From Chiloscyllium plagiosum (taxonomy: Eukaryota), in the NCBI RefSeq assembly GCF_004010195.1, contig NC_057718.1, forward strand, positions 94,026,039 through 94,090,038: a stretch of DNA of 64,000 nt. Direction: 5' to 3'. The position numbers were made by a program, and so were the translations under genes. Below the pieces are notes generated by a model. It saw only the letters and a program-made list of their open reading frames with translations. It searched no databases and had not been told where the DNA came from. Shown piece after piece: positions 1 to 58,733 of this stretch (positions are counted from its first letter, which is position 1; every line of letters begins with the position of its first letter).

Positions 1-715
1 AACAGGGCTGTGTCAGTCTATTCATACCATGTAACAATAATTTGCAACACGTCAAATGTTTTTTTTTAAATGCTACCCGGATTTGAAGCCCCACTTTCCT
101 CCATCTGCTCCCATCTCCCTTTCCCTTTGCACACCTCTCCAGTCTGTCCTCTTGCCTCTCCTTATTCCCAAACCCAGAACTCTCCCCCCTGCACCTTCTC
201 TCCCCTCTGTCCAAGCCTACCTCCTGAATGCACTAATTCACTGCTTTTTTAATTGTTTTATTTGTACTGATCAATTTTGTTTTGGATCATAATGATGATC
301 AACGCAGATTGTTTCTCCAGAGGGGATATGTCTACCAGATCAACCCTGTCCTGACATTACATCAGACTCTTGCACTTCCATTCAGAGTTTTCACTGACTG
401 TTGCGAGTTCTGGATCCCTCTCCACTTCCCTTGACCTCACTCGATCAGGAAAGCAATATTGAAGCTAAAATTAACATTCAGTTCAGTGTTAGTTCTGCTG
501 CTTCCATCCTGCCTGAAATCTTTGGGCCAAATTTTAACTGGAATCCTACCATTTGTACAGTTATATGCCAGCTCCCAGTCTGTATAGCTACCAGCAGAAG
601 CACTGGAGAAACTTCAAAGTGCCGATAATTGTAGTTAAAATATAGCAGAAACTTATTGTGGAATAACTTCAACTGGAATGTTAGATTTGGCTCATGTCAT
701 GACACTGTATACTAA

Positions 716-1236
716 GTCAGAAGTCACATGACACCAGATTATAGTTCAATAGGTTTCTTTGAAATCACAAGCATTTGGAGCACTGCTCCTTTGTCAGTTG
801 ACGTCACTTCGCCTGATGGAGTAGTGTTCCGGAAACGTGTTATTTCAAATAAACCTTTAGGACAATAACCTGGGCGTCACGGTGGCACAGTGGTTAGCAC
901 TGCTATCTCACAGCGCCAGAGACCTGGGTTCAATTCCCGCCTCAGGCGACTGACTGTGTGGAGTTTGCATGTTCTCCCCGTGTCTGCGTGGGTTTCCTCC
1001 TGGTGCTCTGGTTTCCTCCCACATTCCAAAGATGTGCAGGTCAGGTGAATTGGCCATGCTAAATTGCCTGTAGTGTTAGGTAAGGGGTAAATGTAGGGGT
1101 GGGTTGCGCTTCGGCGGGTTGTTGTGGACTTGTTGGGCCAAAGGGCCTGTTTCCACACTGTAAGTAATCTAATCTAATCTGATGTCATGTGACTTCTGAC
1201 TTTGTCAATCCCAATCCAACACCAGCACCTCCACAC
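716..1236 (+). mobile_element. PLE-derived hammerhead fold-back element (family A-like), interrupted by an HE1 SINE
   Basis: Left arm GTCAGAAGTCACATGACACC... is inverted to the right arm ...GATGTCATGTGACTTCTGAC. Degenerate hammerhead at 812-840, tail CCAATCCAACACCAGCACCTCC, TSD CACTGTATACTAA 703-715 / CACTGTACACTAA 1237-1249. Confidence 0.75.
872..1180 (+). mobile_element. HE1-type tRNA-derived SINE
   Basis: A box TGGCACAGTGG, B box GGTTCAATTCC, CR1-like 3' end GGGCCTGTTTCCACACTGTA and (TAATC)n tail. Confidence 0.9.
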
Positions 1237-1672
1237 CACTGTACACTAATACATTTCAAGTCACAAAAACAGTTTCAAGCAGATTAATGTGAAGACTGAT
1301 GATTTGACAGTCACAGAGAAAATTATGCATTCATGAACAGTCAACATGGACAAAACAGTTCCACAAATATGATTGAATCAAAAAATATTAATTGATCATG
1401 GATATGGCAAATCAATGGCTATGTCTCCAGACATGGCTTACAGATTATGAATTCATTTATTATACCACCATATTGAAATTGGATTCAATCATCTGTTCAT
1501 TTGTAGCTAACAGCAAAAAAAATGGCATGATAACTAACAGCTTGGAGAACTGGGTGGATTTTTCAAATCAATGTTAATCAGGAATATACTACCCCCAACT
1601 ATCTTTGCCTCTATATAACTGCAGTCCCACACTGTCCCTTTGATTCTTCGTATCCTCAGGGTCACCAGGGAT

Positions 1673-1965
1673 ACAAAGAAAATTTAAATCCCAGGAACAG
1701 GCCCTTCGGCCCTTCAAGCCTGAGCCGATCCAAATGTACTGTCTAAACCTGTCGGTCAATTCCTAAGCATTTGTACCCCTCTGCTCCCCACTTACTCATG
1801 CATCTGTCCAGACACATCTTAAATGAATCTATCATGCCTGCCTCTACCACCTCTGCTGGCAACGCATTCCAAACGCCTACCACCCTCTGTGTTAAGTACT
1901 TACCACTTGTATCCCCCTTAAACTTTCCACCTCTCACCTTGAAAGCATGACCTCTCGTTATTGAT
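1673..1965 (-). mobile_element. CR1 LINE 3' fragment
   Basis: ORF 1743-1937 gives the CR1 ORF2 C-terminus (TQRVVGVWNALPAEVVEAG) followed by the 3' UTR. Confidence 0.85.
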
Positions 1966-2765
1966 GAACAATAATAACAAGCAACAAGTGCTTCAATTCA
2001 AAGAGGAAACATAAAGATCTGATCTTTTAAATAATCAAGAAATATAAAATGAAATTATGCTCCTGGAGCATTGAAAATTGTTATGCCAGCATTCACGCAT
2101 TCTTGCAATGTAATTTGCAGTGAGCCAAATACCTTTCCTGCAATATCATTACAACAAAATTTACACACAATTCTCCAATGAAAGATCAATGAAAGTTCAG
2201 CAAGCAGATTTCACACAGACAGTAGATTTCTATTGAACAATTTACCAGAGGTTTGGACCTGTCTTCCACAGTTGCTTAGATCAATTGCTAATTTTAAATG
2301 TGGGACTGATAGATTTTTGTTAATGAAAGGTATTAAGGGACTTAGGGTGAAGACGGGAATATGGAATTGGGTCACAGATGAGCTTTGATCTCACTGAATG
2401 GCAGAATAAACTCAAGGGGCTACATGGTCTGCTCCTAATCCCACGTTCCTCAAATGATATGAAAACTCCAAAAGAGGTTATGTTGGAAGAAGAGTGCTCA
2501 GGCTGATCATACGTTTAGCTCACATCTTTGTCGTAATAAGTTGTGAAAGATCAAACCTACTGGAATATTTACTGTCGTTTTAACATTGCTAGTAGAAAAA
2601 TAGTGAAATATATCAGTGAATAAATTGCACAATGCTAATAAGTGAATTGAGAATCTATATAAAATGAACAAAGTCCCCACTTGCGAGGCAAACAATTATG
2701 TTTTACAGTGGTAATAGCTTCCATTGACTCTGGAGGTTCCACTGCCACTGTGTTATTCTGTTAGT

Positions 2766-3395: not shown

Positions 3396-3546
3396 TTTAA
3401 TCCTACATGAAATACGCTGAGACAGCTGCCAGTTTTGACCAATTCCTCCAGTCGAGATACAACTTTATAAACCCCCCCAAGGATTGAGCTGAATCTAAAT
3501 TCTCATTGAGCAAAGATCAAAGGACAAAGAACAATACAGCACAGGA
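3396..3546. repeat. Arm 1 of a perfect 151-bp local inverted duplication
   Basis: Exact reverse complement of 4183-4333 by manual comparison. Confidence 0.9.
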
Positions 3547-3916: not shown

Positions 3917-3954
3917 GGTTCCTGAAGAAGGGCCTGTGCCCGAAACGTCGAATC
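3917..3954 (+). ncRNA. Minimal type I hammerhead ribozyme motif
   Basis: GGTTC-CTGAAGA-A-GGGC(CTGT)GCCC-GAAACGTC-GAATC. Predicted cleavage after C3949. Confidence 0.75.
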
Positions 3955-4037
3955 TCCTGTTCCCTGGATGCTGCCTGACCTGTTCCAGCAATAAAGTTTC
4001 AACTTTGATCTCCAGCATCTGCAGACCTCACTTTCTC
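3921..4037 (+). mobile_element. Single-arm PLE-derived hammerhead mini-element (family B)
   Basis: Near-identical to the element at 28810-29030, with tail ...GCAGACCTCACTTTCTCC. TSD CTGGTGGTT 3912-3920 / 4038-4046. Confidence 0.85.
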
Positions 4038-4182: not shown

Positions 4183-4333
4183 TCCTGTGCTGTATTGTTC
4201 TTTGTCCTTTGATCTTTGCTCAATGAGAATTTAGATTCAGCTCAATCCTTGGGGGGGTTTATAAAGTTGTATCTCGACTGGAGGAATTGGTCAAAACTGG
4301 CAGCTGTCTCAGCGTATTTCATGTAGGATTAAA
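4183..4333. repeat. Arm 2 of the 151-bp inverted duplication
   Basis: Reverse complement of 3396-3546. Abuts the head of the minus-strand SINE. Confidence 0.9.
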
Positions 4334-5356: not shown

Positions 5357-5569
5357 CAAATAAAAACCGAAAGAGCTGCAAATCAGAAACAAAAACCAGA
5401 AATTGCTGGAAAAGCTCAGCAGGTCTGCAAGAGTTAACACTTTGGGCCCAGTGACTTTTTCTCAGTTCTGAAGGAGGGTCACCAGATCCGAAACATTAAC
5501 TCTGATTTCTCTTCACAGATGCTGCCAGACCTGCTGAGCTTTTCCAGCAAATTCTGTTTTTGCTGTGGT
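5357..5569 (-). mobile_element. PLE-derived hammerhead fold-back element (family C) inside a CR1 3' tail
   Basis: Arms CAGAAATTGCTGGAAAAGCTCAGCAGGTCTG / CAGACCTGCTGAGCTTTTCCAGCAAATTCTG. Degenerate hammerhead at 5464-5503. TSD TCATGGCTGATC 5345-5356 / TCACGGCTGATC 5570-5581. Confidence 0.75.
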
Positions 5570-5705
5570 TCACGGCTGATCTACTTGTGTTTCAAATTTC
5601 ACCTTCCCGACTATCCTAGATAATCCTTGATTCTGTTGCCTAACAGAAATCTTTCTATTTCTGCCCTAAAACATATTTAATTACCTCACCTCCATAATCT
5701 TCTGA

Positions 5706-7617
5706 GTCATAGAGTCATAGAGATGTACAGCACGGAAACAGACCCTTCGGTCCAACCCGTCCATGCCGACCAGATATCCCAATCCAATCTAGTCCCACCT
5801 GCCAGCACCTGGCCCATATCCCTCCAAATCCTTCCTATTCATATACCCATCCAAATGCCTCTTAAATGTTGCAATTGTACCAGCCTTCACCACTTCCTTT
5901 GGCAGCTCATTCCATACACGTACCACCCTCTGCATGAAAAAGTTGTCCGTTAGGTCTCTTTTATATCTTTCCCCTCTCACCCTAAACCTATGCCCTATAG
6001 TTCTGGACTCCCACACCCCAGGGAAAAGACTTTGCCTATTTATCCTATCCATGCCCCTCATAATTTTGTAAACCTCTATAAGGTCACCCCTCAGCCTCTG
6101 ACGCTCCAGGGAAAACAGCCCCTGCCTGTTCAGCCTCTCTCTATAGCTCAAACTCTCCAACCCTGGCAACACCCTTGTAAATCTTTTCTGAACACTTTCA
6201 AGTTTCACAACAGCTTTCCGATTGGAAGGAGATCAGAATTGCACGCAATATTGCAACAGTGGTCTAACCAATGTCCTGTACAGCCGCAACATGACCTCCC
6301 AANNNNNNNNNNNNNNNNNNNNNNNNNNNNNNNNNNNNNNNNNNNNNNNNNNNNNNNNNNNNNNNNNNNNNNNNNNNNNNNNNNNNNNNNNNNNNNNNNN
6401 NNNNNNNNNNNNNNNNNNNNNNNNNNNNNNNNNNNNNNNNNNNNNNNNNNNNNNNNNNNNNNNNNNNNNNNNNNNNNNNNNNNNNNNNNNNNNNNNNNNN
6501 NNNNNNNNNNNNNNNNNNNNNNNNNNNNNNNNNNNNNNNNNNNNNNNNNNNNNNNNNNNNNNNNNNNNNNNNNNNNNNNNNNNNNNNNNNNNNNNNNNNN
6601 NNNNNNNNNNNNNNNNNNNNNNNNNNNNNNNNNNNNNNNNNNNNNNNNNNNNNNNNNNNNNNNNNNNNNNNNNNNNNNNNNNNNNNNNNNNNNNNNNNNN
6701 NNNNNNNNNNNNNNNNNNNNNNNNNNNNNNNNNNNNNNNNNNNNNNNNNNNNNNNNNNNNNNNNNNNNNNNNNNNNNNNNNNNNNNNNNNNNNNNNNNNN
6801 NNNNNNNNNNNNNNNNNNNNNNNNNNNNNNNNNNNNNNNNNNNNNNNNNNNNNNNNNNNNNNNNNNNNNNNNNNNNNNNNNNNNNNNNNNNNNNNNNNNN
6901 NNNNNNNNNNNNNNNNNNNNNNNNNNNNNNNNNNNNNNNNNNNNNNNNNNNNNNNNNNNNNNNNNNNNNNNNNNNNNNNNNNNNNNNNNNNNNNNNNNNN
7001 NNNNNNNNNNNNNNNNNNNNNNNNNNTCCAGCACTTCCTCCTCTGTAATCTGGACATTTTGCAAGATGTCACCATCAATTTCCTTTCTGTCTATATCTTC
7101 CATATCCTTTTCCACAGTAAATACTGATGCAAAATATTCATTTAGTATCACCTCCATTTTCTGTGGCTCCACAAAGGCCGCCTTTCTGATCTTTGAGGGG
7201 CCCTATTCTCTCCCTAGTTACCCTTTTGTCCTCAATATATTTGTAAAAACCCTTTGGATTCTCCTTAATTCTGTTTGCCAAAGCTATCTCATGTCCCCTT
7301 TTCCCCTCCTGTTTTCCCTCTTAAGTATACTCCTACTTCCTTTGTACTCTTCTAAGGATTCACTCGATCTATCCTGTCTATACCTGACATATGCTTCCTT
7401 CTTTTTCTTAACCAAATACTCAATTTCTTTAGTCAGCCAGCATTCTCTATACCTACCAGCCTTTCCTTTCTCCCTGACAGAAATATACTTTCTCTGGATT
7501 CTTGTTATCTCATTTTTGAAGGCTTCTCATTTTCTAGCCGTCCCTTTACCTGCGAACATCTGCCTCCAATCAGCTTTCAAAAGTTCTTGCCTAATACCGT
7601 CAAAATTGGCCTTTCTC
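5706..7617 (-). mobile_element. CR1 LINE (ORF2 remnant) spanning an assembly gap
   Basis: Peptides LNEYFASVFT, EVMLRLYRTLVRP and LESVQKRFTRVLPGL...WNELP, with a (CTATGACT)n tail at 5706-5720. Confidence 0.9.
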
Positions 7618-9291: not shown

Positions 9292-9735
9292 CAAAAATCA
9301 TAATACTGCAGATGTTGAAAATCCAAAACAAAAGCAGAAACAGGAAATGCTGGAAGTGGCACGGTGGCTCAGTGGTTAGCATTGTTGCTTCACAGCACCA
9401 GGGGCCCGGGTTCAATTCCTGCCTCGGGTGACTGTCTGTGTGGAGTTTGCAAATTCCTGTGTTTGTGTGGGGTTTGCTCTGGTTTCCTCCCACAAGTCCA
9501 AATATGTGCAGATCAGGTGAATTGGCCATGCTAAATTCCTTGTAGCATTAGGCACATTAGCATAGGGTAGGGGATAAGGTCTGGGTTGGTTACTCTTTGG
9601 AGGTTCGGTGTGGACTTGTTGGGCCAAAGGGCCTGTTTCTATGCTGTAGGGAATCTAATCATTCAACAGGTTACTGCAATATCTATGGACGGACATAGAG
9701 GTAGTGTTTTGAGTCTGTGATTTCTCATCAGGACT
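9292..9735 (-). mobile_element. Decayed PLE-hammerhead element interrupted by an HE1 SINE (9356-9660)
   Basis: ACTGCAGATGTTGAAAATCC...AAATGCTGGAA resumes after the SINE as TTCAACAGG...TCATCAG. Confidence 0.55.
9356..9660 (+). mobile_element. HE1-type SINE
   Basis: A/B boxes and GGGAATCTAATC tail. Confidence 0.88.
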
Positions 9736-15510: not shown

Positions 15511-16963
15511 TGTGGCTCTGTATCAACTGTTCTTTGATAGGGTTCCCATTCCATCAGTTAGGATGTCTTGCAAGATTAAAGTTAACATATAAATAAATTC
15601 ACAATATCATTATAAAGTTTCTTTCTAAGCCAAAATTGGTCCACCTGTTCGAGAGTTAAAGAGGATTTCAGCACAGAACCAGAACATTTGGCCCATTAAG
15701 TCATACTTTGACTCTATCTCTGATGAAACCTATGTAAAAGCACCTTGTGTATATTAAAGGTCAATGGATAATGTGTATCAGTCACATGGCTCTGATGCTT
15801 TGTTCTCATTTTCTTTTAATTACATCACATTATATGCTGAAAGCACAACGCAGGTGATTTCAACTGTATAGTGTTCATGTGCACCAAATTTACATCATGA
15901 CCCAAATTAACATTGGTCTGTGAATAAATACGTAACTGAAAATTGAATTAAATTGTTTAAAATGAAAATAATTCACAATAGATTGGTTCCGAATCAAAAG
16001 ATCTACATCTGGATTCGCGTTTTTGCTTTAAATGTAAATATAAAATAGACTTTATAATGAATTTAATATGGTGGTGATAAGGAGATTAATCTCCTTGATA
16101 ACAGACTGCAAATAAGTCTAATGCGCCCATGGTTCAAACAAGGGTTTCTGTTTATTGGGAACAGGCGAGAGATGAATGGCTTGTTAAACATTGCCAACAT
16201 ACTTGCTTGGTGCCATTCAACGGTCACAGCAAGTGGAAACAAGGAACTTGCGTTCTACACCCATTTGCTAATTCAGTCCAACTTTGTTTCTCTATCTTAT
16301 CTCTTCACCTTCTTTACCTCAGTGTGATTGCATACTTTTAATGCTCTTTGTCTCCGCTGAGTACCTCCAGCTCTGATCAGTGTGAAAATAAATGGACAAC
16401 TTGCCCATATGTATTTATGAGCTTTTATTGATTGATTGTTTCACTGCATTTTACTGGTTATAAAGTTATATTATCATGGACGTTTAACCAGGCGAACACT
16501 GTAAAAGACAAGAATTTCCATTCGAACATTAGTAAGCCTCCCGGTGGCAACTTGGGGTGGAAACAAGTTAATCATTCACCTCTGTTGGATTGTGAAGGCT
16601 TTCAGAACACTTGGCTGACATATGCTTTATCTTCATATGTTTGTCTTTATTGTAAATATAACATGAAAAAGGACAGGCCAAAAATTCCAAATTTTAAATG
16701 ACCTATTTGGTCTGGACTTGAATGGTTACCTCATCACTTAGACGCGATCAGCCCAATGCATTGGAACCCCACTCCAACACGATCCATGTATTGAGACTGT
16801 GTTTTAAGCTAGACCGTATTATTCATAGTTGGTGCCCATTAATGGTCCTGCAAGTGCAAGCGGCAATATTGTGTACCTATCCCCATTATTTCCTGTCCTT
16901 AAGTCTTCAAAATAAATGAATAAAACAGGCATTGTGTAAAACCAAAACTAGATAATTGAAGGC

Positions 16964-17095
16964 AAACTAAAACAAAGACCTGCAGATGGCGGAGATCTGA
17001 AACTAAAACAGAAATTGCTGGAGAAACACAACAGGTCTGGCAAGATCTGTGAGAAGAGAGTTAACATTTCAAGTCCAGTGACTCTTCGCCAGAAT
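16964..17095 (-). mobile_element. Single-arm PLE-hammerhead element (family C), decayed
   Basis: CTGCAGATGGCGGAGATCTGAAAC...GAGTTAACATTTC...TCTTCGCCAGAA matches the family C arm plus tail. Confidence 0.65.
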
Positions 17096-17349
17096 AACTA
17101 ATTGAAAAGCTATGGGTGGCTGTGATTGTTGGCTGTATTTGCAGAGTGAAGATTCTGTGATTCAAGACACATACTGAAGTCTGGGCCATTGCAGACTGTA
17201 TTATGGTAGGGCTCAGGCATACACACATTCTTGGTTGGCTTGCTTTTTTTGAAAGAGCATCATGGTGACCTACAAATACTGAGAGAGAAAGTATCTTTGC
17301 ATTTGATATCCTCACTTAATTGTCAATCTTTACATCACAATCTCGCCTC

Positions 17350-17715: not shown

Positions 17716-17806
17716 TTTATGCTCTGTGGCCTGTTATAGACTCACTCCATACATTGGCAAATGATGAAGAAGCAACTCTTGTACACTTACATTTCAATGA
17801 AATTTG

Positions 17807-18195
17807 GTCTGATGAAAATAGGTTAATTGCAATATAAAACTTCCTTCTGCTCAGCCCTAACCTCAGCGTAGCACTCTCTATTGGATCAATATTACATTTT
17901 TCTGCATCAGTAGTGTCCTTTTTAGCTGAGATTCACAATACTGCCAAATGGCCTTTTCATTTCCTATCTCTAGAGTCCTCTTCAATCTTCATTTTGGGTA
18001 CTGGAGAACTTTACAATTGACCAAAGAGAAGGAAATGCTATTGTTTCTGTCTGCCTCCACCACAGAGGTGTATCAAGCTGTAGCACTATCCTGGTCCCTC
18101 ATCTCATCCTGGAATTGAAATCCATCCTTGGCAAAAGTGCAAAGTGAACATCAAACTGACCATCTTATAGTGGTGTAAAACTGGCTGCGGATGTT
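17807..18195. repeat. Copy 1 of a 389-bp direct duplication
   Basis: Matches 18994-19382 with 3 substitutions. Confidence 0.92.
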
Positions 18196-18400: not shown

Positions 18401-18993
18401 CTAATGTAAAACAGTGGCTAGAACTTCAATATTGTGTACCTATCCCCTTCTAGATAAGAAGTTGGCAGTTTTGTGGTCGTGCATTTTTCTGCTGTTGAGT
18501 TAGTTCATGCGAAAGGAAATGGTCAGCCTTCTGATTGGGGCGGTTCCATCCATCCCATGCCCATTTGTTCAGGATGTTGGGCAGCTCTATTCAATCCATG
18601 ACTTCCCGTTGGGAAAAGATCTTGTACAAATGGTGTGGCTGTTATCCCGGTAACCTGGGTTAATCAGAAGTTCTAACGGTAAAATAATGTATTGGTAGTA
18701 CACAACACAAACATTGTTAAAAAGAGGCACAGAGTCGAAGTTTTTCATCTCACAGCCATCAGGAGCAGCATGCAAGAAATCAAACTTTGAAAGGGAACAC
18801 CAATTTAAACAGCATGAGAAGAAGGTGTTGATTGCATGAATCATGGCTAGCATGGAGAATCAGGATGATTTGTTAACTGGCAACCTCAGTTAGCTAATTG
18901 ATCTCAAGCCAAGCAGCATTCCTCCAGGTAATGTATTAAAATGTTGGAGCATATCATTTTATTTCCATTTAACATGAGGATCCATCATTTTAA

Positions 18994-19382
18994 GTCTGAT
19001 GAAAATAGGTTAATTGCAATATAAAACTTCCTTCTGCTCAGCCCTAACCTCAGCGTAGCACTCTCTATTGGATCAATATTACATTTTTCTGCACCAGTAG
19101 TGTCCTTTTTAGCTGAGATTCACAATACTGCCAAATGGCCTTTTCATTTCCAATCTCTAGAGTCCTCTTCAATCTTCATTTTGGGTACTGGAGAACTTTA
19201 CAATTGACCAAAGAGAAGGAAATGCTATTGTTTCTGTCTGCCTCCACCACAGAGGTGTATCAAGCTGTAGCACTATCCTGGTCCCTCATCTCATCCTGGA
19301 ATTGAAATCCATCCTTGGCAAAACTGCAAAGTGAACATCAAACTGACCATCTTATAGTGGTGTAAAACTGGCTGCGGATGTT
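18994..19382. repeat. Copy 2 of the 389-bp direct duplication
   Basis: Matches 17807-18195. Confidence 0.92.
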
Positions 19383-19716: not shown

Positions 19717-20542
19717 TGTTATGGACCAGATCAAATCCCCTCAAAATATATTAAGAAGATAGTCTCGACCCTACCATTTTCTCATTTAAAGGTAAGTTTA
19801 AGGCATTGTGCTACAGATGCATTTCAATTGGTCAAACAACCAGACTTGGAACAAAACATAGGTAAAAGTGAGGACTGCAGATGCTGGAAACCAGAGTTTA
19901 GATTAGAGTGGTGCTGGAAAAGGACAGCAGGTCAGGTAGCATCCAAGGAGCAGGAAATTCAACGTTCCAGATGAAGGGCTTGGATGCTGCCTGACCTGCT
20001 GTGCTTTTCCAGCACCACTCTAATTGGAACAAAACATACTTTATTCATGCACTATAATTAAAATACAGACAAAATAAAAATGGAGGAATTACCTAAACTG
20101 TAACTCTATTGAAATGTTTAACAAAATAAAAATATTAACTACTACTAATTAACTTTTCCACTATATTACCATTCCACAAGCACACCCTTGGCAAAGGCAA
20201 ATTCAGTAAAATAGAGTCTCTCGCATACAATTCTAGCAGCAGGAAAAGAACGCCAACTTTTCGTTGTAACAGAGAGAGGAATAAGAGCTTCCACATCCAA
20301 CTTCAAGACACCAGCAATTGCTACCTAAGGCTAAAAGTAAAAATAATTCTGATTCTGTGGGAGCATGACCCCATGCGTTCAGGCTGCTTCTATTATTCCA
20401 ACTTTTAAAAATAACCCAAGGGTCTCACAAGGTGTTTACTTTATTGGCTTTGGAGTGGACTGATCCACACCTCTGTCTCAAACGTTCATCATTAAAACAA
20501 AACAGGACAAAATACAATTCTTAAAGCCATAGTAATATCACA
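19717..20542 (-). mobile_element. Probable solo LTR containing a PLE insertion
   Basis: TGTTAT...ATCACA termini, flanks AGAT/GGAT, minus-strand AATAAA near 20040. Confidence 0.45.
19861..20023 (-). mobile_element. PLE-derived fold-back element (family B-related) with deleted centre
   Basis: Inverted arms ATTAGAGTGGTGCTGGAAAAG / CTTTTCCAGCACCACTCTAAT. Perfect 15-bp TSD TTGGAACAAAACATA 19846-19860 / 20024-20038. Confidence 0.85.
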
Positions 20543-21543: not shown

Positions 21544-21587
<44 letters not shown>

Positions 21588-23236: not shown

Positions 23237-23812
23237 TTAAAAAATCACACAACACCAGGTTATAGTCCAACAGGTTTATTTGAAAGCACTAGTTTTCGGA
23301 GCGCTGCTCCTTCATCATGTGGTTGTGGACCATAAGATCGTAAGACACAGAATTTATGACAAAAGTGTACAGTGTGATGGAACTGAAATTATATATTGAA
23401 AAAGACCTGGATTGTGTGATAAGTCTTTAAGAACCATGTTGGTTTCAGTTCTTTCATCTCAGAATGTTTTTTAAAGTTACATTCTCAGATGAACTTTAAC
23501 AATAGGTGCCATGTTGGTCTAGATAATGCATTGAAGGTGTGAGGTGCACTGTGTGAGACTGTCTGTGCCCAATGTTCAGACCGATTCTAATCTAAAAAAG
23601 GGAGTTCCAGAATCTTACCTGGCTTTATGCAGTTTATGAGCAAAATAAAATGTAATCCTGCAAGTACAAATTCACCCCACAAACTTATATGTGCGTGCGT
23701 GCATGTGGGTGGGTGTGTGTATGTGTGGGAGGGTATGAGTGTCTGTGAGAGAGTGTGTGTTTGTGTGAGTGTGACTGTAAAGGAGTATAAGTCTGTTGGC
23801 GAGTGTGTGTCT
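23237..23812 (-). mobile_element. Penelope-like element 3' region (family A), single arm
   Basis: Homologous to the 42844-43336 arm. Mutated hammerhead at 23287-23321, (GT)n-rich end, possible TSD TATAATGAG/TATAATTAG. Confidence 0.8.
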
Positions 23813-24217
23813 ATTATAATTAGGAATGCTCAAGAGAACATCCTTTGGAAAAGAAGTAACACAGAAAGCAGAAGATGTAGTGGTATTGTCATAATATTAC
23901 TGCACTTGTAATCTGGAGCTCCCTGATCTATATTCTAGGGTGTATGGGTTCAAATCATGTCATAGTAGGTAATATCTGGGATAAAGTGCTGGTCTAATGG
24001 AAGTGTGTATTGCCTAGTGGCTGTTTGTCATTTTTCAATATCCTTGCAGGAAGGAGTCATCTGGCTCCAAATCCACAGCAATGTACTTGATTCTTAACTG
24101 CTCTCTGGCAATAGAGAATGGGTGATAAATCCTGGCCTTGCCATGAATGCACTGACCCAATGAATACAGAAGCAAATTGGCAAGCTGGATTAATAAATTG
24201 CATTTAATTCTGATCTC

Positions 24218-24695
24218 AGGGTTCAGAAAAGATTGCGAGGATGTTGCCAGGGTTGGAGGATTTGAGATATAGGGAGAGGATGAATAGGCTGGGGCTGTTT
24301 TCCCTGGAGCGTCAGAGGCTGAGGCATGACCTTATGGAGGTTTATAAAATCATAAGAGGCATGGATAGGGTAAATAGACAGTCTTTTCACTAGAGTGGGA
24401 AAGTCTAGAACTGGAGGCCATAGGTTTAGGGTGAGAGGGGAAAGATATAAAAGAGACCTAGGGGGCAACGTTTTCACGCAGAGGGTGGTACATGTTTGGA
24501 ATGAGCTAACAGAGGATGTGGTGGAGGCTAGGAAAATTGCAACATTTAAAAGGCATCTGGTTAGGTATATGAATAGGAAGAGTTTGGAGGGATATGGGCC
24601 ATGTGCTGGCAGGTGGGACTAGATTGGGTTGGGATATCTGGTTGGCATAAACAAGTTGGACCAAAGGGTCTGTTTCCATGCTGTACATCTCTATG
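24218..24695 (+). mobile_element. CR1 LINE 3' fragment
   Basis: SRTGGHRFRVRGERYKRDL...WNEL. Confidence 0.88.
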
Positions 24696-25820: not shown

Positions 25821-28809
25821 GGTCTTAGTTAATGGCATAATTGTTGATACTCTAAATCAGGAGGCTCTGAGACCAGTCATTGGATTTGATCAGATAGTAG
25901 TGAAGATGTTCTGTGTTGGCGTCAGTATGAAACATTAACCCAAAGTCATGTCTTGCTGTTCCACTGGTTCAGATGAACAGTAAAGGTCCCATGATATGAT
26001 GCTGCTTCATCAGGTGATGCCAGCAGTAACAAACAGGTGTGGTGCGAAATACAGCATTGACTCATTTATCAGCTAGCTTTCTTTAATTGGCACTCAATGT
26101 TTTCAATCCAATAGTTTATGGCATTTATTCAACAAGTACTCTCACACAGTGGCTGATGATTTTGAACGAGGGCAAATGTTTTTGATCTGAATTATTGAAG
26201 TTTTTGGGATCTTTAAATGCATGAAATGAGTGCCAAATTGCCCAAATGATAAAAGCCATTGCATTGCAAAGTAATCCCTTTTATTCCTTTTCAGATGTTC
26301 CTGAGAGAGATGACGAGACCTCTAGGCAAATCTTGCATTAATTGTCAGATATTGTTTGTGAAAGATAACATTTAAATTGGCTTGCTTTTTATGCGATGAG
26401 ACTGTGTGTATTGTGAGGTTTGTCAATAAGTTTTTTTTGACAGCATGTAACTAGTTGACAGAGTGTTTGCTGTAAATGGCCTAGTGATTGATCTTTATAT
26501 TTATAGACTAGATTTAGTCAAGAAAAGAAAACATTAACCACTTGAAATAAATGGGTCCGATGTGTGCCAATGGCTTGGAACTGTAGGCACTAAAAAATTG
26601 CATGGCATTGATAATTGCCACATACTTCAACAAACGTCAACTGCGCTAACACAAAATTTCCTCCACCAACAACAAATACAAGGTGAGAGCTATTGTAAAC
26701 TACATCTTTTTGAATAATCCAGCTTGTCATTACCTTTATATTCTTTCACTATAAATTGAGGGAAGACTCATATTGCGCAGTCTACATCCTAGTCTACTTT
26801 ATTGTAGTGAGATTACTTTGTTCAAGGTAGCCTCTGAGTCCAGAACCACTTTAAAGCTTTCAATTATGTTGTAAATAAACATATAACTTGAAGCTTATTG
26901 ATGTAAGGCATCTTTTACTGTGTGGATAAAAGGTTTGTTTTCTGTCACTAATTTGAGATTGGAACACTTATCTGTTGTTTGGTTATATCTGGAATATACT
27001 TGTTAAAACTAGACTGTCTGATGCAATTTTGAGCACTGTGACATTTATAGGCATCTTCTATCCTGCTTTCTCCCATTTAGCCATTCCACTGCATTCTGTG
27101 ACAGTTGGATTTATCTCCTTCAGATTAATTCTCCACTTAAGACTAAGTACAGCTGAGTTCAAGCAATTGTCAAGCTGTTGGTTGAATCCATTCTCTTCTC
27201 TCGTCCTGAAAGCTAGAATTGCACTTCTCGACAGATGCTCACATTCAAGATGGTGGCCCACAAAATAACAATCACAGAAACCTGACAATATTTCCACTCC
27301 TCTGACTTTGTAATATTCCTGCCAATTGCAACATCCTCGTGAATATTCTGGTGGATAGCAATGAATTCACCAAAAGCAAGCAGTGAGCCTGATCTTTTGA
27401 TAGTTTACATGGTTCACTTGCATTCCAACACTTTACTAAGCGATTAGATATATCCTGAAAATTTTTGAAATAGGGGATAAAATCTTCATTAAGTAGAATA
27501 TACATATACTCCACAACTTCACTGTTAATGGATAAGTCTTATGCTTACAACTGACATTGAAGGACATTTACAGCATGGAAGCCAAATTAACGCCAGGTCG
27601 GTGTAAGTAGAGGAACATATCGATTAAGCTGCTTCCTTCTGCTTACACTCTAAAGTGAATTCTACACTGTCCAAGGCTCCTTTGCAAGTAATGTATCACA
27701 CACCAGGTCTTATTTGCCATCATTCCTGAGTACACTAATCTACCCTGAATCAATGTTCTCCAATGCATGAAAGTCAACGTCATTTTCCTTTGTCTTACAT
27801 CGACTTACCTGTTAAGTTATCTCAGCTTCATGTCTTTCCTTTCATCATTCCTCCCCCTGACCTTTCAGTGCATCTTGATCCAGCTCCAAAGCTGGGCCAG
27901 AACAGGTGAGGATGACAGATTTTCTTTCCTGAAGGACATTAGTGCATTAGATGAGGTTTTCTCAAACAAATCAGCAGGTATCAACTGTATTTATCCTGCT
28001 AATACCACATTTCCAGACTAAAAGAGAAGGAACACAGACATAAATTGCTGGAGAAACTCAGCAGGCCTGGCAATATCCTGGAGAGAAAGTAGAATTTCTA
28101 CTCCATTGACTCTTCTTCACTCCAGTTCCACAGGATCAGAAAGCAGTATAGGGATACAGTATTGCTATTTAACAGAGCTGAAGCTTAATTGGAAATAAAG
28201 TGCATCATTTTCATGAAATAATGTTTAAAAGGTTCAAGATCTTAAAAACAAGAGATTTAAGACAACGTTTTGCTTTTTTCTAATCTTCTGGGTGTCATCG
28301 GCTGGGCCAGCATTTATTACCCATCCCTCATTTTATTTTGTTTATTCATGGGACATGGACATCACTGGCCAGACCATTTATTACTCCTTCCCTGACTGCC
28401 CAGTCAGCAGATAGGGCTAAACCACATTGTGTGGTTCTGGAGCCACATGTCAGTCAGACTAGGTAAGGATGAAGGATTTCCTTCCTTAAAGGACATTAGG
28501 ACAGATTGAGGTTTTCCCCAACAATCGGCAGTGGCTTTATTGTCAATCCCAGATTTTTATTGAATTCAAACTTCACCATCTGCCATGCTGAGATTTGAAC
28601 ATGGGCCCTCAGAGCATCACTTGGCCATAACCTCCCCACAGGAGGTGCCCTCGAGAAGGTGCTGGTGACCTGCCTTTGGAACCTCTACAGTCCACGTGCT
28701 GCAGGTAGACCCACAATGCCATGAATCTTGACTCAGTGACACTGGAGGAACAGAGATTATAGAGGTTTATAAAATCATGAGGGGCATGGATAGGGTAAAT
28801 AGACAAGGT

Positions 28810-29030
28810 GGAGAAAGTGAGGTCTGCAGATGCTGGAGATCAAAGTTGAAACTTTATTGCTGGAACAGCACAGCAGGTCAGGCAGCATCCAGGGAACAGG
28901 AGATTCGACGTTTCGGGCACAGGCCCTTCTTCAGGATTCCTGAAGAAGGGCCTGTGCCCGAAACGTCGAATCTCCTGTTCCCTGGATGCTGCCTGACCTG
29001 CTGTGCTGTTCCAGCAATAAAGTTTCAACC
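28810..29030 (-). mobile_element. PLE-derived perfect palindromic double-hammerhead element (family B)
   Basis: 92-bp perfect arms 28845-28936 / 28938-29029, 35-bp unpaired tail 28810-28844, TSD TAAATAGACAAGGT 28796-28809 / 29031-29044. Confidence 0.92.
28935..28972 (+). ncRNA. Minimal type I hammerhead ribozyme motif (mirror copy on the minus strand at 28902-28939)
   Basis: Stem I GATTC/GAATC, core CTGAAGA, extra A, stem II GGGC/GCCC, GAA-ACGT-C. GUC cleavage triplet ends at 28967. Confidence 0.8.
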
Positions 29031-38645: not shown

Positions 38646-38917
38646 ATAATATGATACATTGGAAGCGGGAAAAATATGGGGAATGTAGGAAGAAACCAAG
38701 GGGGAAGATTGCTTAGCCACTATTGATGGAATGGAAGGACACACAACCGGACAAGAGTAGGATGAATGGAGGTTCCTGGTTGTTTAAATGGTTAAAGGAG
38801 ATTGCAGATATCAAATGGATGAGATTCTTCTGAGAAAGGATTTATAACTGTGGATGTTAATGTTAAAATTGATGCACTGGATGGCTGAGGGTCAGTGAGC
38901 ACTGACAAAAACAAGTT

Positions 38918-39024
38918 ATAAACAAAAACAGAAATTGCTGGAAAATCTCAGCAGGTCTGGCACCACCTGTGGAGAGTAATCAGAGTTAACTTTTCGGGGT
39001 TGAGTGACCCTTCCTCAGAACTGA
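38918..39024 (-). mobile_element. Single-arm PLE-hammerhead element (family C)
   Basis: Minus strand reads AGTT-CTGAGGA-A-GGGTCACTCAACCCC-GAAAAGTT-AACT. Confidence 0.75.
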
Positions 39025-39049
39025 TTAGAAGCATACTGGGCTCAGTATG

Positions 39050-39256
39050 AAGTTAAAAATCACACAACATCAGGTTAAAGTCCAACAGGTTTAATTGGAA
39101 GCACACGAACTTTCGGAGCATTGCTCCTTCATCAGGTGGTAGTGGAGTGCTCAATCCTAACCCACAGAATTTATAGCAAAAATTTACAGTGTGATGTAAC
39201 TGAAATTATACATTTAAAAATTGATTGTCTGTTAAGCCTTTCATCTGTTAGAATAT
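39050..39256 (-). mobile_element. Single-arm PLE element (family A) with hammerhead at 39104-39138
   Basis: Minus strand reads CAC-CTGATGA-A-GGAGC(AAT)GCTCC-GAAAGTTC-GTG. TSD GCTCAGTATG 39040-39049 / 39257-39266. Confidence 0.85.
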
Positions 39257-40464: not shown

Positions 40465-41265
40465 GAATTTGATTTGATTTGTTTTACTATTGTCACATGT
40501 ACCCAGGTACAGTGAAAACTTTCATTTTGCGTGCAGTGCAAACAGATAGTAACATTCAAAGTGCATTGGAGTAATAGAACAGAGTGAGGAATACAATGTT
40601 AGGGCTGCAGAGAAGATGCACAGACAGTGACATCAACAACACATTATAATTTGAGAGGTCAATTCAGAAGTCTAATAACAGCGAGGAAGAAGATGTTCTT
40701 GAGCCTGTTGGTACGTATGTTTAGATGTGTCTTCAGCCCAATGAAAGAGGGTGGAAGAAATTATAATCGCATTGGGAGGGGTCTTTGATGATGTTGACTG
40801 CCTTCCAAAGGCAGTAAGAACTATAGATGGAGTCAATGGATGGAACGTTGGCTTGCGTCATGGACTGGGCTGTGTTCACAACTCTCTGTAAGCTCTTCCT
40901 GTCCTGGGCAGAGCAGTTTCTATACTGAACCCGGATGTATTTGAATAGAATGCTTTCTATAGTACATTTATTAAAACTGATAGGAGTCTTTACAGATATG
41001 CCAAATTTCCTTAGCCTCCTGAGGAAGTAGAGGCATTGATGTGCTTTCATGACCATCACATCAATTTGGGTAGACCAGGAGAGATTGTTGGTGATCATCA
41101 CTCCCAGGAACTCCTCACTCTCGATCATCTCCACCTTAGCATCATTGCTGTAGACAGCAGTGTGCACTGCACCTTGCTTCCTGAAGTCAATGGCTAATTC
41201 TTTCATTTTGCTCATGTTAAGGGAGAGATTCTTTATAACACACCATCAAACACACTATCTCTTTC
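40465..41265 (-). mobile_element. Rex1/Babar-like LINE 3' part
   Basis: ORF 40733-41215 (KELAIDFRK...LYFLRRLRKFG) with an (AAATC)n tail. Confidence 0.82.
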
Positions 41266-42843: not shown

Positions 42844-43942
42844 AAAAAAAAATCACACAACACCTGGTTAAAGTCCAACAGGATTAATTGGAAGCACTAG
42901 CTTTCGGAGCACCGCTCCTTCATCAGGTGGTTGTGGAGGACACAATTGTAAGGCACAGAATTTATAGCAAAAGTTTACAGTGTGATGTAACTGAAATTAT
43001 ACATTTCATCTGTTCAAATACCATGATAGTTTCATTTCTTTCATGTGTAAATCACAAAACCTTTTTTTAAAAAGTTGCATTCTCAGGTTAACTGTAACAA
43101 TGGGTGTTAGTTAGACAATATGTTGAAGGTGTTAGCCCTCTGTGTTCTTTGTTTGTGCCATGATGTTTAGATTGATTCTAATCTAGAAAGTGAGTTTTAT
43201 GTGAATTCATGCAGTTTTTGAGCAAAGTACAATGTAACTCTGCAAGTACAAATTCACCCCACAAACATATATGTATATGTGTGAATGTGGGTCTTTGTGT
43301 GTGTGTGTGTGTAGGAGTGTCTGTGTGTGTGTAGTGCAGACTTAAGACACTCTACATTCACTACACACACATATACACTCTCTCTCACACTCACAACCCT
43401 CCAACCCAGACACAAAGACCCACATGCACACATATACATATATGTTTGTGGGGTGAATTTGTACTTGCAGAGTTACATTATACTTTGCTCAAAAGCTACA
43501 TGAATTCATGTAAAACTGTTATCTCACTTTTTAGATTAGAATCAATCTAAACATCATGGTACAGACAGAGAACACAGGGGGTTAACACCTTCAACATATT
43601 GTCTAGCTATCACCAATTGTTACAGTTAACTTGAGAATGCAACTTTTTTTTAAAAAAGTTTTGTGATTTACACATGAAAGAAGTGAAACTATCATGGTAT
43701 TCGAACAGATGAAAGACTCAACAGACAATCAAGGTATTTTTCAATGTATAATTTCAGTTACATCACACTGTAAACTTTTGCTATAAATTCTGTGCCTTAC
43801 AATTGTGTCCTCCACAACCACCTGATGAAGGAGCGGTGCTCCGAAAGCTAGTGCTTCCAATTAAACCTGTTGGACTATAACCTGGTGTTGTGTGATTTTT
43901 AACTTTCGTACACCCCAGTCCAACACCAGCATCTCCAAATCA
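42844..43942 (+). mobile_element. 1.1-kb Penelope-like fold-back (family A) with a hammerhead in each arm
   Basis: Arms ~42844-43336 / 43360-43906, 36-nt tail 43907-43942, TSD TCATTACAGAAAGT 42830-42843 / 43943-43956. Confidence 0.9.
43816..43856 (+). ncRNA. Minimal type I hammerhead ribozyme motif (mirror copy on the minus strand at 42895-42929)
   Basis: CAC-CTGATGA-A-GGAGC(GGT)GCTCC-GAA-AGCT-A-GTG. CUA triplet ends at 43850. Confidence 0.8.
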
Positions 43943-47648: not shown

Positions 47649-47788
47649 GAGTTCTGAGGAACGGTCACTCGACCTGAAATGTTAACTCTGATTTCTCTTC
47701 ACAGGTGCTGCCAGACCCGCTGAACTTGCTCAGCAATTTCTGTTTTCATTTCCAATATACAGCATCCGTAGTTCAGTCAGTTTCTATT
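47649..47788 (+). mobile_element. Single-arm PLE-hammerhead element (family C) inserted in the B box of a short tRNA SINE (47592-47860)
   Basis: GAGTT-CTGAGGA-A-CGGTC(ACTC)GACCT-GAAATGTT-AACTC. TSD CAACC(C/G)AAGTTCA 47636-47648 / 47789-47801. Confidence 0.8.
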
Positions 47789-48090: not shown

Positions 48091-48876
48091 TGGAGTTAGC
48101 CAAAAACATGGTGAGCAGTTTCATTTAAGATCAATGGCAAGTAATGTAAATGTTAATAAGTCCCTTAACAATCATCCAATTTGCTATTCCCAATGCATTC
48201 CTTTATCAAACAATGTCTCATGCCAACTGTGGGCTAAATTGCAGTTGGAGTTCTAGAGAAAATGAAGAATTGCAAATGCTGGACATCTGAAACAAAACTT
48301 CGCCTCCACTTCCGTGAATATTTGCAGCCGTTCTATGTTTCACCTTTCTGTTTCCAATAGCACGTTGTTTTTGAGGTATTCCCTCCTTCACCATTTCTTC
48401 TCATTTTTTCCCTGGTCTGTCATGCCTAGACATATTCTAAACTAATGTTCATTTTCCACCCTTGTAAAATTTGCCATCAAGTCTGTTTTCATTGCTTGTA
48501 ACTGGTTGATTTGATATTTCACCTTTATGGTTTCCACATGTTGATCTACATTAGTTTTGCCCATCTGTACACAGTTTGTTCATATTCTCTCTGCTCACTT
48601 CCTTCTAACTGGGTCTACCTGCTTCCTCATTTCCCTATTAATTCATTTTGTCAGTATAGTAGCTTCCTTCCTGCCTCAGAGCCCCCTTACCTTATTGAAG
48701 AGAATCAACATTCTTCTGCCAGTACTAATACCAATGACATTAAAGTGAATATCATGTTCTCAAGGCTGTGCCTTTAGATGCATCTTCCAACACACACCAG
48801 AATGGTCTGCCATATTCTACCCTTTGGAAACCTTAATGCCATTCAAAACTTTGTTGTCTGCCTCTTAAGTCCCATT

Positions 48877-49116
48877 GCTGAAAATGTGTTGCTGGAAAAG
48901 CGCAGCAGGTCAGGCAGCATCCAGGGAACAGGAGAATCGACGTTTCGGGCATAAGTCCTTCTTCAGGAATGAGGAAAGTGTGCCCTGATTCCTGAAGAAG
49001 GGCTTATGCCCGAAACGTCGATTCTCCTGTTCCCTGGATGCTGCCTGACCTGCTGCGCTTTTCCAGCAACACATTTTCAGCTCTGACCTCCAGCATCTGC
49101 AGACCTCACTTTCTCC
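48877..49116 (+). mobile_element. PLE-derived double-hammerhead fold-back element (family B)
   Basis: 94-bp arms 48877-48970 / 48988-49081 (1 mismatch), 17-bp spacer, 35-bp tail, TSD (CC)TCTTAAGTCCCATT 48861-48876 / 49115-49130. Confidence 0.92.
48987..49024 (+). ncRNA. Minimal type I hammerhead ribozyme motif
   Basis: GATTC-CTGAAGA-A-GGGC(TTAT)GCCC-GAAACGTC-GATTC. Confidence 0.75.
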
Positions 49117-55160: not shown

Positions 55161-55381
55161 CTGAAGACAACGAGTGCTGGAGATCCCAGAAGATCAGGCA
55201 GCATTCGTGCAGGGAGAGCAAGCTAACGTTTCAAGACTGGATGATTCTTCATCAGAGTCATCTAGACTCGAAATGTTAGCTTGCTCTTTCTTCATGGATG
55301 CGGTCTGACTGCTGTGATCTCCAGCACTTGTTGTTTTCAGAATAGATTCCAGCTCCTACATAGTAATTTGCTCCTACATAG
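55161..55381 (+). mobile_element. PLE-derived hammerhead fold-back element (family D)
   Basis: Arms CTGAAGACAACGAGTGCTGGAGATC / GATCTCCAGCACTTGTTGTTTTCAG. Minus-strand CTGATGA-A...GAAACGTT-AGC, stem II GAGTC/GACTC, TSD TAAAGAAGG 55152-55160 / 55382-55390. Confidence 0.8.
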
Positions 55382-56109
55382 TAAAGAAGGGGTTTGGCAC
55401 ACCTGCCTATATTGGTCAGTATAGGAGTTGGGACGTCTGTGACGCCACTTTTGTAGCCTGGTCACCCAGCTATGGGAAGAATATTATTAAATTGGAGAGG
55501 GTGCAGGAAAGATTTATGAGGATGTTTCTGGGACTGGAGAGTTTGAGTTATTGGGACAGGCTGGATAGATTGGGAAGCTTTTCGTCAGAGCACAGGAGGT
55601 TGAGGGATGACCTTTTCGAGGTCTATAAAATCATGAGGGACTAATATAATTTGAATAGCAAAGGCCTTTTCCCTAGGGTAAGGGCTTTCGAAACTAGAGG
55701 GCATATTTTTAAGGTGAGAGGAGAAAGATATAACGAGGACCTGGGGGGCAACATTTTCACTCAGAGAGTGGTGTGTGTGCGGAATGAACTACTAGAGGAT
55801 GTGGTAGAGGCAGGTACAGTTACAACATTTAAAAATTATTTGGACAGGGATGAATAGAAAAGGTCTATAGGGATATGGGGCAAATCCAAGTAAAGGGACT
55901 AGTTGAGTTGGGAAACTTGGTCAGCATGGACAACTTGGACTGAAGGGCCTGTTTCCATGCTGTATGATTCTATAACTCTATGTGTGAGAACCTCATAGAA
56001 TTCTAACAGTGCTAGACAGGGAAAACACAAGAAGGGTATTCTCCATGACTAGGAGACTCCAGAATTTAGGGTGACAGTCTAAGGATATAAAGTAGGTTTT
56101 TCATGTCTG

Positions 56110-56440
56110 ATTAGATTAGATTCCCTACAGTTTGGAAACAGGGCCTTCAGCCCAACAAGTCCACATCGACCCTCCGAAGAATAACCCACCCAGACCCATT
56201 CTCCTACCCTATATTTACCCCTGCCTAATGCACCTAATACTTTGGCAATTTAGCATGGCCAATTCACCTGGCCTACACATCTTTGGATTGTGGGAGTAAA
56301 CCAGAGCACTCAGAGAAATTCCACACAGACACGAGGAGAATGTGCAAACCCCGCATTGGCAGTCGCCCAAGGCAGGAATTGAACCCAGGTCCTTGGCACT
56401 GTGAGGTAGCAGTGCTGACCACTGAGCCACTGTGCCGCCC
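56110..56440 (-). mobile_element. HE1-type SINE
   Basis: TTAGATTAGATT tail and CTGTGCCGCCC head (reverse complement). Confidence 0.88.
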
Positions 56441-57537
56441 CAAAGATGAAGAGATGACGAGAAATGCCTTCACCCAAAGAGCGGTGAGCTTGTGGAAGTT
56501 TCTGCCGCAGGAAGCATTGAGGCCAAAACTTTAAATATTTTCAAGAAATTAGATACAGTTCTCAAGGCTAAAGGGATCAAAACAGGGTGTGACGGATCAT
56601 ATTGAATGCAGAACAGGCTCAAAGGGCCTATTCCTATTTTCTATGTTTCTATAATAAATGGAGAAATGGAAATAACTGGTGTCCAGACTTCTTGGGGGAG
56701 AGTTTGTGGGTAATTGTGTTTTGGACCAGTTACAGTTAACGTAAGATGGAGAATAGGAGACAAGTGAGGGGCAAACTGGAGAAATTCTGCTCATCAGCCC
56801 TTGCTCCAGAATTGTGCTAAAGTGGGGAAGTAGATGGACAATGTCGCAGAGATAAAGGCAAGCAATCCTACATGAGGAATTACATTTGGGATTTGGAGCT
56901 CAGCTAAGAGTTGAACAACCTGATTTAACCCAAGTGAATGGACAAGGAGGAGGCTGAATTGGATGACAAGTGAAAGGACACTGTAGTGGAAAAATCTCCA
57001 CAGCATGACATCTCATTTTTGGATCAATATTTGTTACCACTGACGAACCGAAACCAGTGTGATCCAAATGATCCTTTTGGCAGTATCACCGTACAAAATG
57101 AGCATGTTATTTTGATGCCTAACAACAAGCTGGTAATATTGCAAACTTATCTCTGCATTTCTGTATAGGGTAATGGGTAAAATAAAGTGCCATGTGAATA
57201 AATTATATTAACGTGCAGCTCAGAAAATATCAGGTGGATTCTGTTCATGTTTACCCAGTCCCCAAGTCAGGAAATTGCAATGCATTATAACCTTGAGAAA
57301 TGGAGATGGTTGAACAAGTCTATATCCCGGACTGAATCAACCACAAACTGGTATTCCTAGTTTCTGGAACTCTTCTTCCAGTGTTAAATTTTCCAGGGGT
57401 CTCAAGCACATGTGTGCTCCAAGAAGCTGATGATGGGCTTGCACCAGGACTACTTTCAGTTCTGAGGATCTCAGAAGGCAACACATGTGTGAGGTTTAAC
57501 ACTTTTTGTGGAACCTTAAGGTTTAAAGTCTTCTCAC

Positions 57538-57850
57538 AGTCATGGAGTCATAGGGTCATGCAGCACGGAAACAGACCCTTCGGTCCAACCAGTTGTACCT
57601 GACCAAAAACCCAGACAATACTAGTCCTACCTGCCTGCTCCTGGCCAATAGCCCTCCAAACCTTTCCTATCCATGTACTTATCCAAATGTCTTTTAAACG
57701 TTAAAATCACACAACAGCAGGTTATAGTCTAACAGGTTTAATTGGAAGCACTAGCTTTTGGAGCACTGCTCCTTCATTTTAAACGCTGTAATTGTACCCA
57801 CATGCACCACTTCCTCAGGAAGTTCATTCCATACACAAACCACCCTCTGT
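57538..57850 (-). mobile_element. CR1 3' tail
   Basis: AGTCATAGGGTCATGCAGCACGGAAACAGACCC...TCATTCCATAC. Confidence 0.82.
57701..57776 (-). mobile_element. 76-bp single-arm PLE (family A) ending inside the hammerhead core
   Basis: TTAAAATCACACAAC...GCTCCTTCA. TSD TTTTAAACG 57692-57700 / 57777-57785. Confidence 0.85.
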
Positions 57851-58604
57851 CTCAAATATTGAAATCTAAATTAAATCAACAAATTGACATGGAAGCATAA
57901 ACAATGATACTGTCGATGGCAGTTTGCAGTTTGAACTCAGTTCAGTTACTTCAACTGGATGTTGGACTAATTGTAAATAAATAAGGAAAAATATGCATTT
58001 CTGTGAGCAAATTTGCTAATGCATTGATACTCAAGTGCTAGGATCATTTAATTAAATATGATTTTGAATCAAGAGTGTTTTATTCTTTTGTATAATATCA
58101 GCTTAACAAATGAATTTTGAGTGAACGCCGTCGAGTTTGAAAATTCCTCTGTGGATTTGTTCCTGGATAGTAGGCCACAAACAAACAGGACTTTGCTTCA
58201 GAATTCATTCACAGTATCCATGAGAAATCATTGAAGATCTGAATGGTAACAACACATTTTAAAGAATTTTTCACTTCAATTCTGCAATTCTGACTCCACT
58301 TTTCTAGCAGGACTTACATGAATGAGGAAGGCCTGTAGTGTAGGAAACCACCGAGGTTTGAAATAAGAAGTTCAGGTGCAGGGCTTGGAGGAGGTATGTA
58401 GTTTCTTCACCATGAAAGGAACAAAGGGAACAAACTCCAGGGGATCAGTTAACAACCTGTTTCCAATGACATAGGCACATGAATGGTCAGCATGGAAGAC
58501 GCTAAAAGTGACAGAATGGTTTGATCTCAATCTCCCCTGATATCCACACATGAAAGGGCTCCGAGATGATCCTCTGTATGGAGTGGGAACATCATTTGAC
58601 TTGA

Positions 58605-58733
58605 AATAAAAACAAACATGTCTGGAAATTCTCAGCCGGTCAGGCAGCTTCTGCAGAGGGAAACTGATCTAGCGATTCAGGTCAAGGTAACCTATTTCAG
58701 TTTCCCAGCATCTGCAGTATTTTGCTTTTGTTT
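58605..58733 (+). mobile_element. Decayed PLE fold-back (inverted arm plus tail, sense arm largely deleted)
   Basis: CTGGAAATTCTCAGCCGGTCAGGCAGC...CCAGCATCTGCAGTATTTTGCTTTTG. Confidence 0.55.

Follow-up and report, generated by a model that had tools for sequence, protein, structure and literature searches.

The window analyzed in this study, a 64,000-nt stretch of the Chiloscyllium plagiosum genome (contig NC_057718.1, positions 94,026,039 to 94,090,038, forward strand), contains 18 insertions built from an arm with a hammerhead ribozyme motif and a short tail, or from parts and remains of this plan. These insertions were probably written by the reverse transcriptase (RT)-endonuclease of a Penelope-like element (PLE) from the hammerhead-bearing end repeat of PLE RNA. 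The initial annotation of the window had already taken them for truncated or non-autonomous products of a PLE RT, and this was supported by target site duplications (TSDs) of variable length (8-16 bp), by tails confined to one side, by the head-to-head arrangement of the arms and by the type of hammerhead. The insertions are new host families of an already described kind, and their density is unusual, with 18 insertions per 62.8 kb of called bases, or one per 3.5 kb, which amounted to 6.5% of the sequence.

Inventory and families of the insertions

All 16 sites listed in the initial annotation proved to be repeat copies by self-BLAST and by two search profiles trained on 14 window arms, of which 58605 was one. 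The profile search returned 26 segments corresponding to 18 insertions and had no match on the reversed window. The list was therefore genuine throughout but incomplete, since 28031 (E 2e-11) and the weak 48258 (E 0.06) had been missed. The description of the elements as miniature held for most of them, but not for 23237 (~579 bp), the 1099-bp palindrome at 42844, or 716, which runs to ~1232. The insertions fell into two lineages without mutual BLAST similarity, an A/C/D group (13 insertions, including an old C-like copy) and family B (5 insertions). Members of the A/C/D group had a common arm motif (14 matches vs 0.02 expected) and a common tail motif (13 matches vs 1.8 expected). A poly(A) end and a B box were absent from all 15 elements tested. 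The insertions are listed below by site, coordinates and strand.

Site 716, 711..1232, both strands: older subfamily of family B, head-to-head, both hammerheads decayed, tail at the right end; right arm interrupted by a tRNA-derived short interspersed element (SINE) at ~871-1173; TSD 13 bp with one mismatch.
Site 3921, 3921..4037, + strand: family A single arm with tail; core intact with C3 at 3922, the insertion beginning 1 nt upstream of the core; all 117/117 aligned bases shared with the left arm of 28810, besides an 8-bp gap; TSD 9 bp.
Site 5357, 5357..5573, both strands: family C head-to-head; left tail, part deleted; junction within stem I; right hammerhead with one core change; TSD 8 bp.
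Site 9292, 9292..9356, - strand: tail and partial arm, then a SINE; profile E 0.0012; no hammerhead, no TSD.
Site 16964, 16961..17098, - strand: family C single arm with tail; hammerhead decayed; TSD 8 bp.
Site 19861, 19861..20023, both strands: family A subfamily, head-to-head; left tail; hammerhead interrupted at the junction, with an internal deletion; TSD 15 bp.
Site 23237, 23237..23815, - strand: long, tailless single arm of family B; A in place of C3; ~500 nt CA-rich non-coding upstream part, the arm being 82% identical to the 42844 right arm over 543 aligned bases; TSD 9 bp with one mismatch.
Site 28031, 28025..28120 (ends approximate), - strand: decayed family C arm; no TSD.
Site 28810, 28810..29030, both strands: young family A perfect fold-back with two intact cores and left tail, inserted in a CR1 fragment; TSD 14 bp.
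Site 38918, 38915..39028 (ends approximate), - strand: tailless single arm of family C; intact core but decayed stem II; no TSD.
Site 39050, 39050..39256, - strand: family B single arm without tail, extending past the core by ~120 nt on its upstream side; the core itself intact, central palindrome gone; TSD 10 bp.
Site 42844, 42844..43942, both strands: family B head-to-head; right tail of ~40 nt; intact hammerheads at 42926 (-) and 43822 (+); TSD 14 bp.
Site 47649, 47650..47769, + strand: single arm of family C, its tail incomplete; core intact, stem II lacking its first base pair; start 4 nt upstream of the core; weak 7-bp direct repeat.
Site 48258, 48255..48300, - strand: possible tail-only fragment, weak; motif match with 2 mismatches.
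Site 48877, 48877..49114, both strands: family A subfamily, head-to-head; right tail; the two cores 25 nt apart; a stem I U-U mismatch in both arms; TSD 16 bp.
Site 55161, 55161..55381, both strands: family D head-to-head; right tail; right arm starting at stem II; junction microhomology of 3 nt; TSD 9 bp.
Site 57701, 57701..57776, - strand: family B 76-bp stub ending within the hammerhead core, in a CR1 fragment; TSD 9 bp.
Site 58605, 58600..58731, both strands: old arm resembling family C, its hammerhead heavily decayed, with a tail attached in inverted orientation; TSD unconvincing.

The hammerhead motif

A full descriptor with the complete core, four stem II pairs and three stem I pairs matched 5 arms in 4 insertions (3922+, 28940+, 43822+, 42926- and 39135-), and no match was found in 100 shuffles. 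When one core change was allowed, 10 matches were obtained, 7 of them within elements, and the mean of 15 shuffles was 1.5. The core was complete in 11 of the 17 parsed arms, whose coordinates were set by hand; the rows of 16964 and 58605 were one base off register, so they were scored as not intact and their mismatch counts were not used. Base pairs were read by script, and the 14-arm DNA alignment misregistered family B. The motif followed the plan CUGANGA-A-stem II-GAAA-NN-UH with a self-complementary centre, ACGU in A and D and AGCU in B. The extra A after A9, which the initial annotation had anticipated, was present in all five full motifs, and an ACGU or AGCU centre in four of them. The stems differed by family yet paired, both in stem I (AUUC/GAAU in A, AGUU/AACU in C, CAC/GUG in B) and in stem II (GGGC/GCCC in A, GGAGC/GCUCC in B). 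The claim that every element carries a hammerhead was too strong, as 9292 had none, that of 19861 was split and partly deleted, and 57701 was cut within the core. A scan against Rfam at E up to 5 gave 13 weak matches in the window, with no hammerhead family among them, but this null result says little because minimal hammerhead forms are not caught by Rfam.

Judged by its sequence, the ribozyme motif is a minimal hammerhead (min-HHR) of type I, as described by Cervera and De la Pena in 2014 (PMC4209133). Shared with the min-HHRs of metazoan PLEs were the type I core, the extra, unpaired base that separates positions 9 and 10.1, the G10.1-C11.1 pair, the palindromic centre (15.2-16.2), the short stem I and the occurrence as solo or opposite-strand copies; position H17 is C, U or A in the min-HHR alignment. 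Min-HHRs were described as mostly solo copies, probably truncated PLEs, with some opposite-strand pairs 100-700 bp apart, and they showed no cleavage as monomers and low cleavage as dimers. The novelty of the elements had been overrated in the initial annotation, since solo and opposite-strand min-HHRs with the extra base, from truncated PLEs, were reported from whole vertebrate genomes in that paper. The part of its supplement that was searched has no shark row. Its totals were ~4,000 in coelacanth and ~9,000 in Xenopus, and the 5 full motifs per 63 kb found here would scale far above these if the window were typical, although the descriptors differ. A literature search, with Repbase, Dfam and subscription journals outside its scope, returned no paper on shark PLE hammerheads. 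An intronic PLE expansion was reported in the whale shark genome (10.1101/443036).

Target site duplications

TSDs had been claimed for most elements. A boundary test of the 16 listed sites revealed exact TSDs of 8-16 bp flush with the element ends at 10 sites and weaker ones at three, namely 716 (13 bp) and 23237 (9 bp) with one mismatch each, and 47649 (7 bp). No convincing TSD was found at 9292, 38918 and 58605. Under the same narrow test, 6 of 1500 random pairs (0.4%) reached 8 bp. With wide windows, as used in the first scan, 20% reached 8 bp and 5% reached 9 bp, and because of this high chance rate the TSDs of 8-9 bp lean on their flush position at ends defined by homology. For two insertions an empty site was present in the window: the CR1 paralogue at 24332-24432 carries the 28810 target once, and that at 5811-5939 carries the 57701 target once. 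The duplications at these two sites are therefore genuine, and the claim of TSDs at most elements stood.

The inverted arms in eight insertions, together with TSDs at most sites, could also be expected of miniature inverted-repeat DNA transposons in which the hammerhead is incidental. This explanation has next to no probability here. The fixed short TSDs of DNA transposons were not seen, the length varying from 8 to 16 bp, and single arms carry TSDs of their own (3921, 16964, 39050 and 57701), which already contradicts it. In addition, the element ends are asymmetric owing to the tail, the centres differ, and the hammerhead motif occurs far above chance.

Arms, tails, junctions and 5' ends

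In all eight two-sided (head-to-head) insertions, the tail of 35-44 nt was found on one side only. Among the eight listed single-arm copies, four had a tail (partial at 47649) and four had none. A short tail of ~35 nt was said to be present often, and it was found in 12 of the 16 listed insertions. The tails of both unrelated lineages share the word CCAGCA(T/C)C. The junctions between arms were of several types: a perfect hairpin at 28810, short microhomology at 5357, 19861, 55161 and 58605, and a 25-nt spacer at 48877. Since the junctions vary between copies, each palindrome was probably built at insertion.

The 5' ends differed between the two lineages. All 10 measurable A/C/D insertions that reach the hammerhead (3921, 5357, 16964, 19861, 28810, 38918, 47649, 48877, 55161 and 58605) end no more than 25 nt upstream of C3, though not at one base. 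In family B, two 5' ends lie at the core, one ~120 nt and two ~490 nt upstream. The two long B arms (23237-23815 and 43337-43900) end within ~20 nt of each other in a CA-rich stretch ~490 nt upstream of the hammerhead, and this shared end may mark either a stall site or a constant start of the RNA.

Probable link to Penelope-like elements

Exact patterns of the families matched no stretch in the viral contigs, metagenome contigs and prokaryote genomes searched. A pattern generalised from family A, used as a positive control, recovered 116 metagenome loci in 5 of the 64 parts of the collection. In one of these loci (L006), the motif followed an RT (Pfam RVT_1, E 5e-5) and GIY-YIG-type frame at a distance of 132 nt, and the frame was preceded by an inverted copy. 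A PLE C-terminus lay 72-299 nt upstream of the motif in 19 of the 94 control loci with enough flank. A fold-back copy was present upstream in 27 of 99 control loci, and in 23 of these 27 it lay within 120 nt of the motif. Two further loci from other animals contained head-to-head hammerhead palindromes of 190-220 bp (L065, 1587-1777; L073, 3409-3631), and the head-to-head form is therefore not specific to sharks.

The layout of the insertions is that of endonuclease-bearing PLE units, which have an inverted pseudo-long terminal repeat (pLTR), an inverted copy truncated at its 5' end, a one-sided tail of 30-40 bp and TSDs of 8-10 bp (PMC3846280, PMC8557442). Head-to-head arms, a tail at one end, variable TSDs, junction microhomology or palindrome and the lack of poly(A) are shared with them; unlike them, the units in the window consist of the end repeat alone, and none reaches coding sequence. 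For the anole PLE in vitro, both DNA strands were cut and extended, and two internal RT starts bound the tail; hammerhead cleavage occurred only with the protein and was not needed for insertion (PMC11167929).

Several results weigh against a PLE origin. A profile of 120 PLE proteins had no match in the six frames of the window, and none in the 700 nt upstream of the arms (0/19). The control loci come from other animals and have the 28-nt motif but not the families in common with the window; they validate the motif class and not the partner, and it is by architecture and motif class that the insertions are linked to PLEs. The 10 measurable A/C/D copies all stay within 25 nt upstream, whereas coding sequence is reached in 19 of the 94 control loci, a contrast not expected from simple random 5' truncation. 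The perfect hairpin at 28810 and the microhomology elsewhere are also ambiguous, since twin priming and fold-back look alike here. The arm plus tail was considered as the N-terminus of a partner protein, but its frame of 39-40 aa had no match, a weak result with such short queries, and the reading frame differed between A and C. A Pfam search of 150 of the 355 frames of at least 55 aa found no PLE or host-gene domain of note. The statement of the initial annotation that the elements encode no protein agreed with both the six-frame profile search and the Pfam search.

Proposed mechanism of insertion

In the PLE-based mechanism that we propose, the PLE protein would nick both DNA strands 8-16 nt apart, and reverse transcription would start within the RNA, downstream of the hammerhead, at either of two sites separated by ~35-40 nt. 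The choice of the start site would decide whether the copy has a tail. In the A/C/D group, reverse transcription would end after 100-135 nt at the hammerhead 5' edge. The most likely reason is that the RNA being copied starts at this edge; stalling of the RT on the ribozyme, folded and bound by protein, could have the same effect. The transcript of Drosophila Penelope starts within the upstream repeat (PMC2377424). If reverse transcription can start internally, it could do so in the 5' one of the end repeats, and the RT would run off after ~100-135 nt. One cDNA would give a single arm. A head-to-head insertion with the tail on one side would arise either by fold-back or from two cDNAs, one primed at each nick and each begun at a different start site. 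The copies retain the core upstream of the cut site, which argues that the template RNA was uncleaved. In both lineages, the tail was predicted to pair back on the arm over 8-9 bp, with the inner start site in the loop (28810-29030, 48877-49114 and 43814-43942), but the folding energies did not exceed those of shuffled sequences. For this arm-tail stem downstream of the hammerhead in A, B and C copies, the z scores of 8 folds were only +0.1 to -1.4, and no covariation was shown.

The absence of coding remains, both in the window frames and upstream of 19 arms, would also fit a different source of the RNA. The A/C/D families could be dedicated SINE-like non-autonomous parasites with master RNAs of 100-135 nt that start from stem I and are copied again in trans by a PLE protein, family B being a second such unit of ~620 nt. 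We regard this as a tentative alternative that is possible but rather unlikely. The ends of the 10 measurable A/C/D copies, the near coincidence of the ends of the long B arms at 23237 and 42844 (right arm), and the arm and tail motifs common to several subfamilies are consistent with it, and non-autonomous pLTR derivatives have been published (PMC8557442; bioRxiv 10.64898/2026.07.22.740005). However, the junction centres and ends vary among copies, an internal B box is absent, and the B copies end at five differing depths, from within the core to ~500 nt upstream. Fold-backs close to the motif were also found in the control loci of other animals, and the pile-up of 5' ends may therefore be a general trait of PLEs.

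Non-LTR retrozymes form tandem units, undergo self-cleavage as dimers, become circular and propagate by a rolling-circle mechanism. Like the insertions, they are non-coding and carry type I hammerheads, and they were reported in one chondrichthyan (bioRxiv 10.64898/2026.07.22.740005). Their PLE end-repeat origin and dispersed monomers are also features of the present insertions on the PLE reading. That the insertions are retrozymes is nevertheless very unlikely, because retrozymes are defined by head-to-tail tandems and there was no head-to-tail array in the window, where all 14 tandem rows had periods of 20 nt or less. By the definition of Li et al. 2026, the insertions therefore do not qualify as retrozymes. 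Where hammerheads are paired, they are on opposite strands, and the stem I of 3-5 bp is of a non-canonical form.

If the insertions were written by a PLE protein from its end repeat, the element ends mark where PLE reverse transcription starts and stops. The kind is known, and neither motif nor layout would surprise a specialist; it is the scale and the geometry that could matter. A genome-wide census could test the anole two-start-site model in vivo as well as fold-back against twin priming, and would improve the annotation of shark repeats.

Age, decay and folding of the inserted copies

Young copies with intact motifs had nearly identical arms (92/92 bases at 28810, 93/94 at 48877 and 380/403 at 42844). 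Older copies had lost the core, the stems or the central CG, and several C/D arms had TG or CA in place of this CG. The predicted fold of the 28810 RNA was a single hairpin (-204 kcal/mol) in which both cores were buried. When two copies were folded together, intermolecular stems were predicted, but not an active dimer. Since activity of the ribozyme is predicted to depend on a dimer or on the element protein, the inserted copies would be mostly silent, decaying relics, and they were probably dead on arrival.

Retention of some copies by the host as working ribozymes in transcripts appears scarcely plausible. All core bases were kept in 11 of the 17 parsed arms, as retention would predict, but the fully intact arms are mostly those of the youngest insertions (arm identity 94-100%), the loss of core, stems or centre in older copies runs counter to it, and the motif is buried in the hairpin in head-to-head copies. 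SINE copies at 871-1173 and ~9357-9660 lie in or against the stubs at 716 and 9292, and both stubs are therefore older than these SINE copies.

Surroundings of the insertions

Repeats are abundant in the window, which is vertebrate DNA and includes RT fragments of CR1 type (Pfam RVT_1) and a tRNA-derived SINE, probably the elasmobranch HE1. Among the 120 relatives listed for a CR1 frame, those of sharks were 67-70% identical and those of birds, turtles and a frog 42-58%, with a few unnamed or bacterially labelled records at 62-73%; these identities point to a shark as the likely host.

The young insertion at 3921 is flanked by a 151-bp inverted duplicate (3396-3546 and 4183-4333; 100% identity, 636 nt apart) of otherwise unique-looking sequence, which may be a recent inversion-duplication or an assembly artefact. 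A direct repeat of at least 300 bp with 97% identity (17794-18093 and 18981-19280, 1187 nt apart) represents a local duplication. Two frames at 35181-35438 and 40736-41245, which resemble those of long interspersed elements, matched Pfam ALKBH8_N and are likely to be transposon-derived sequence that resembles this domain.

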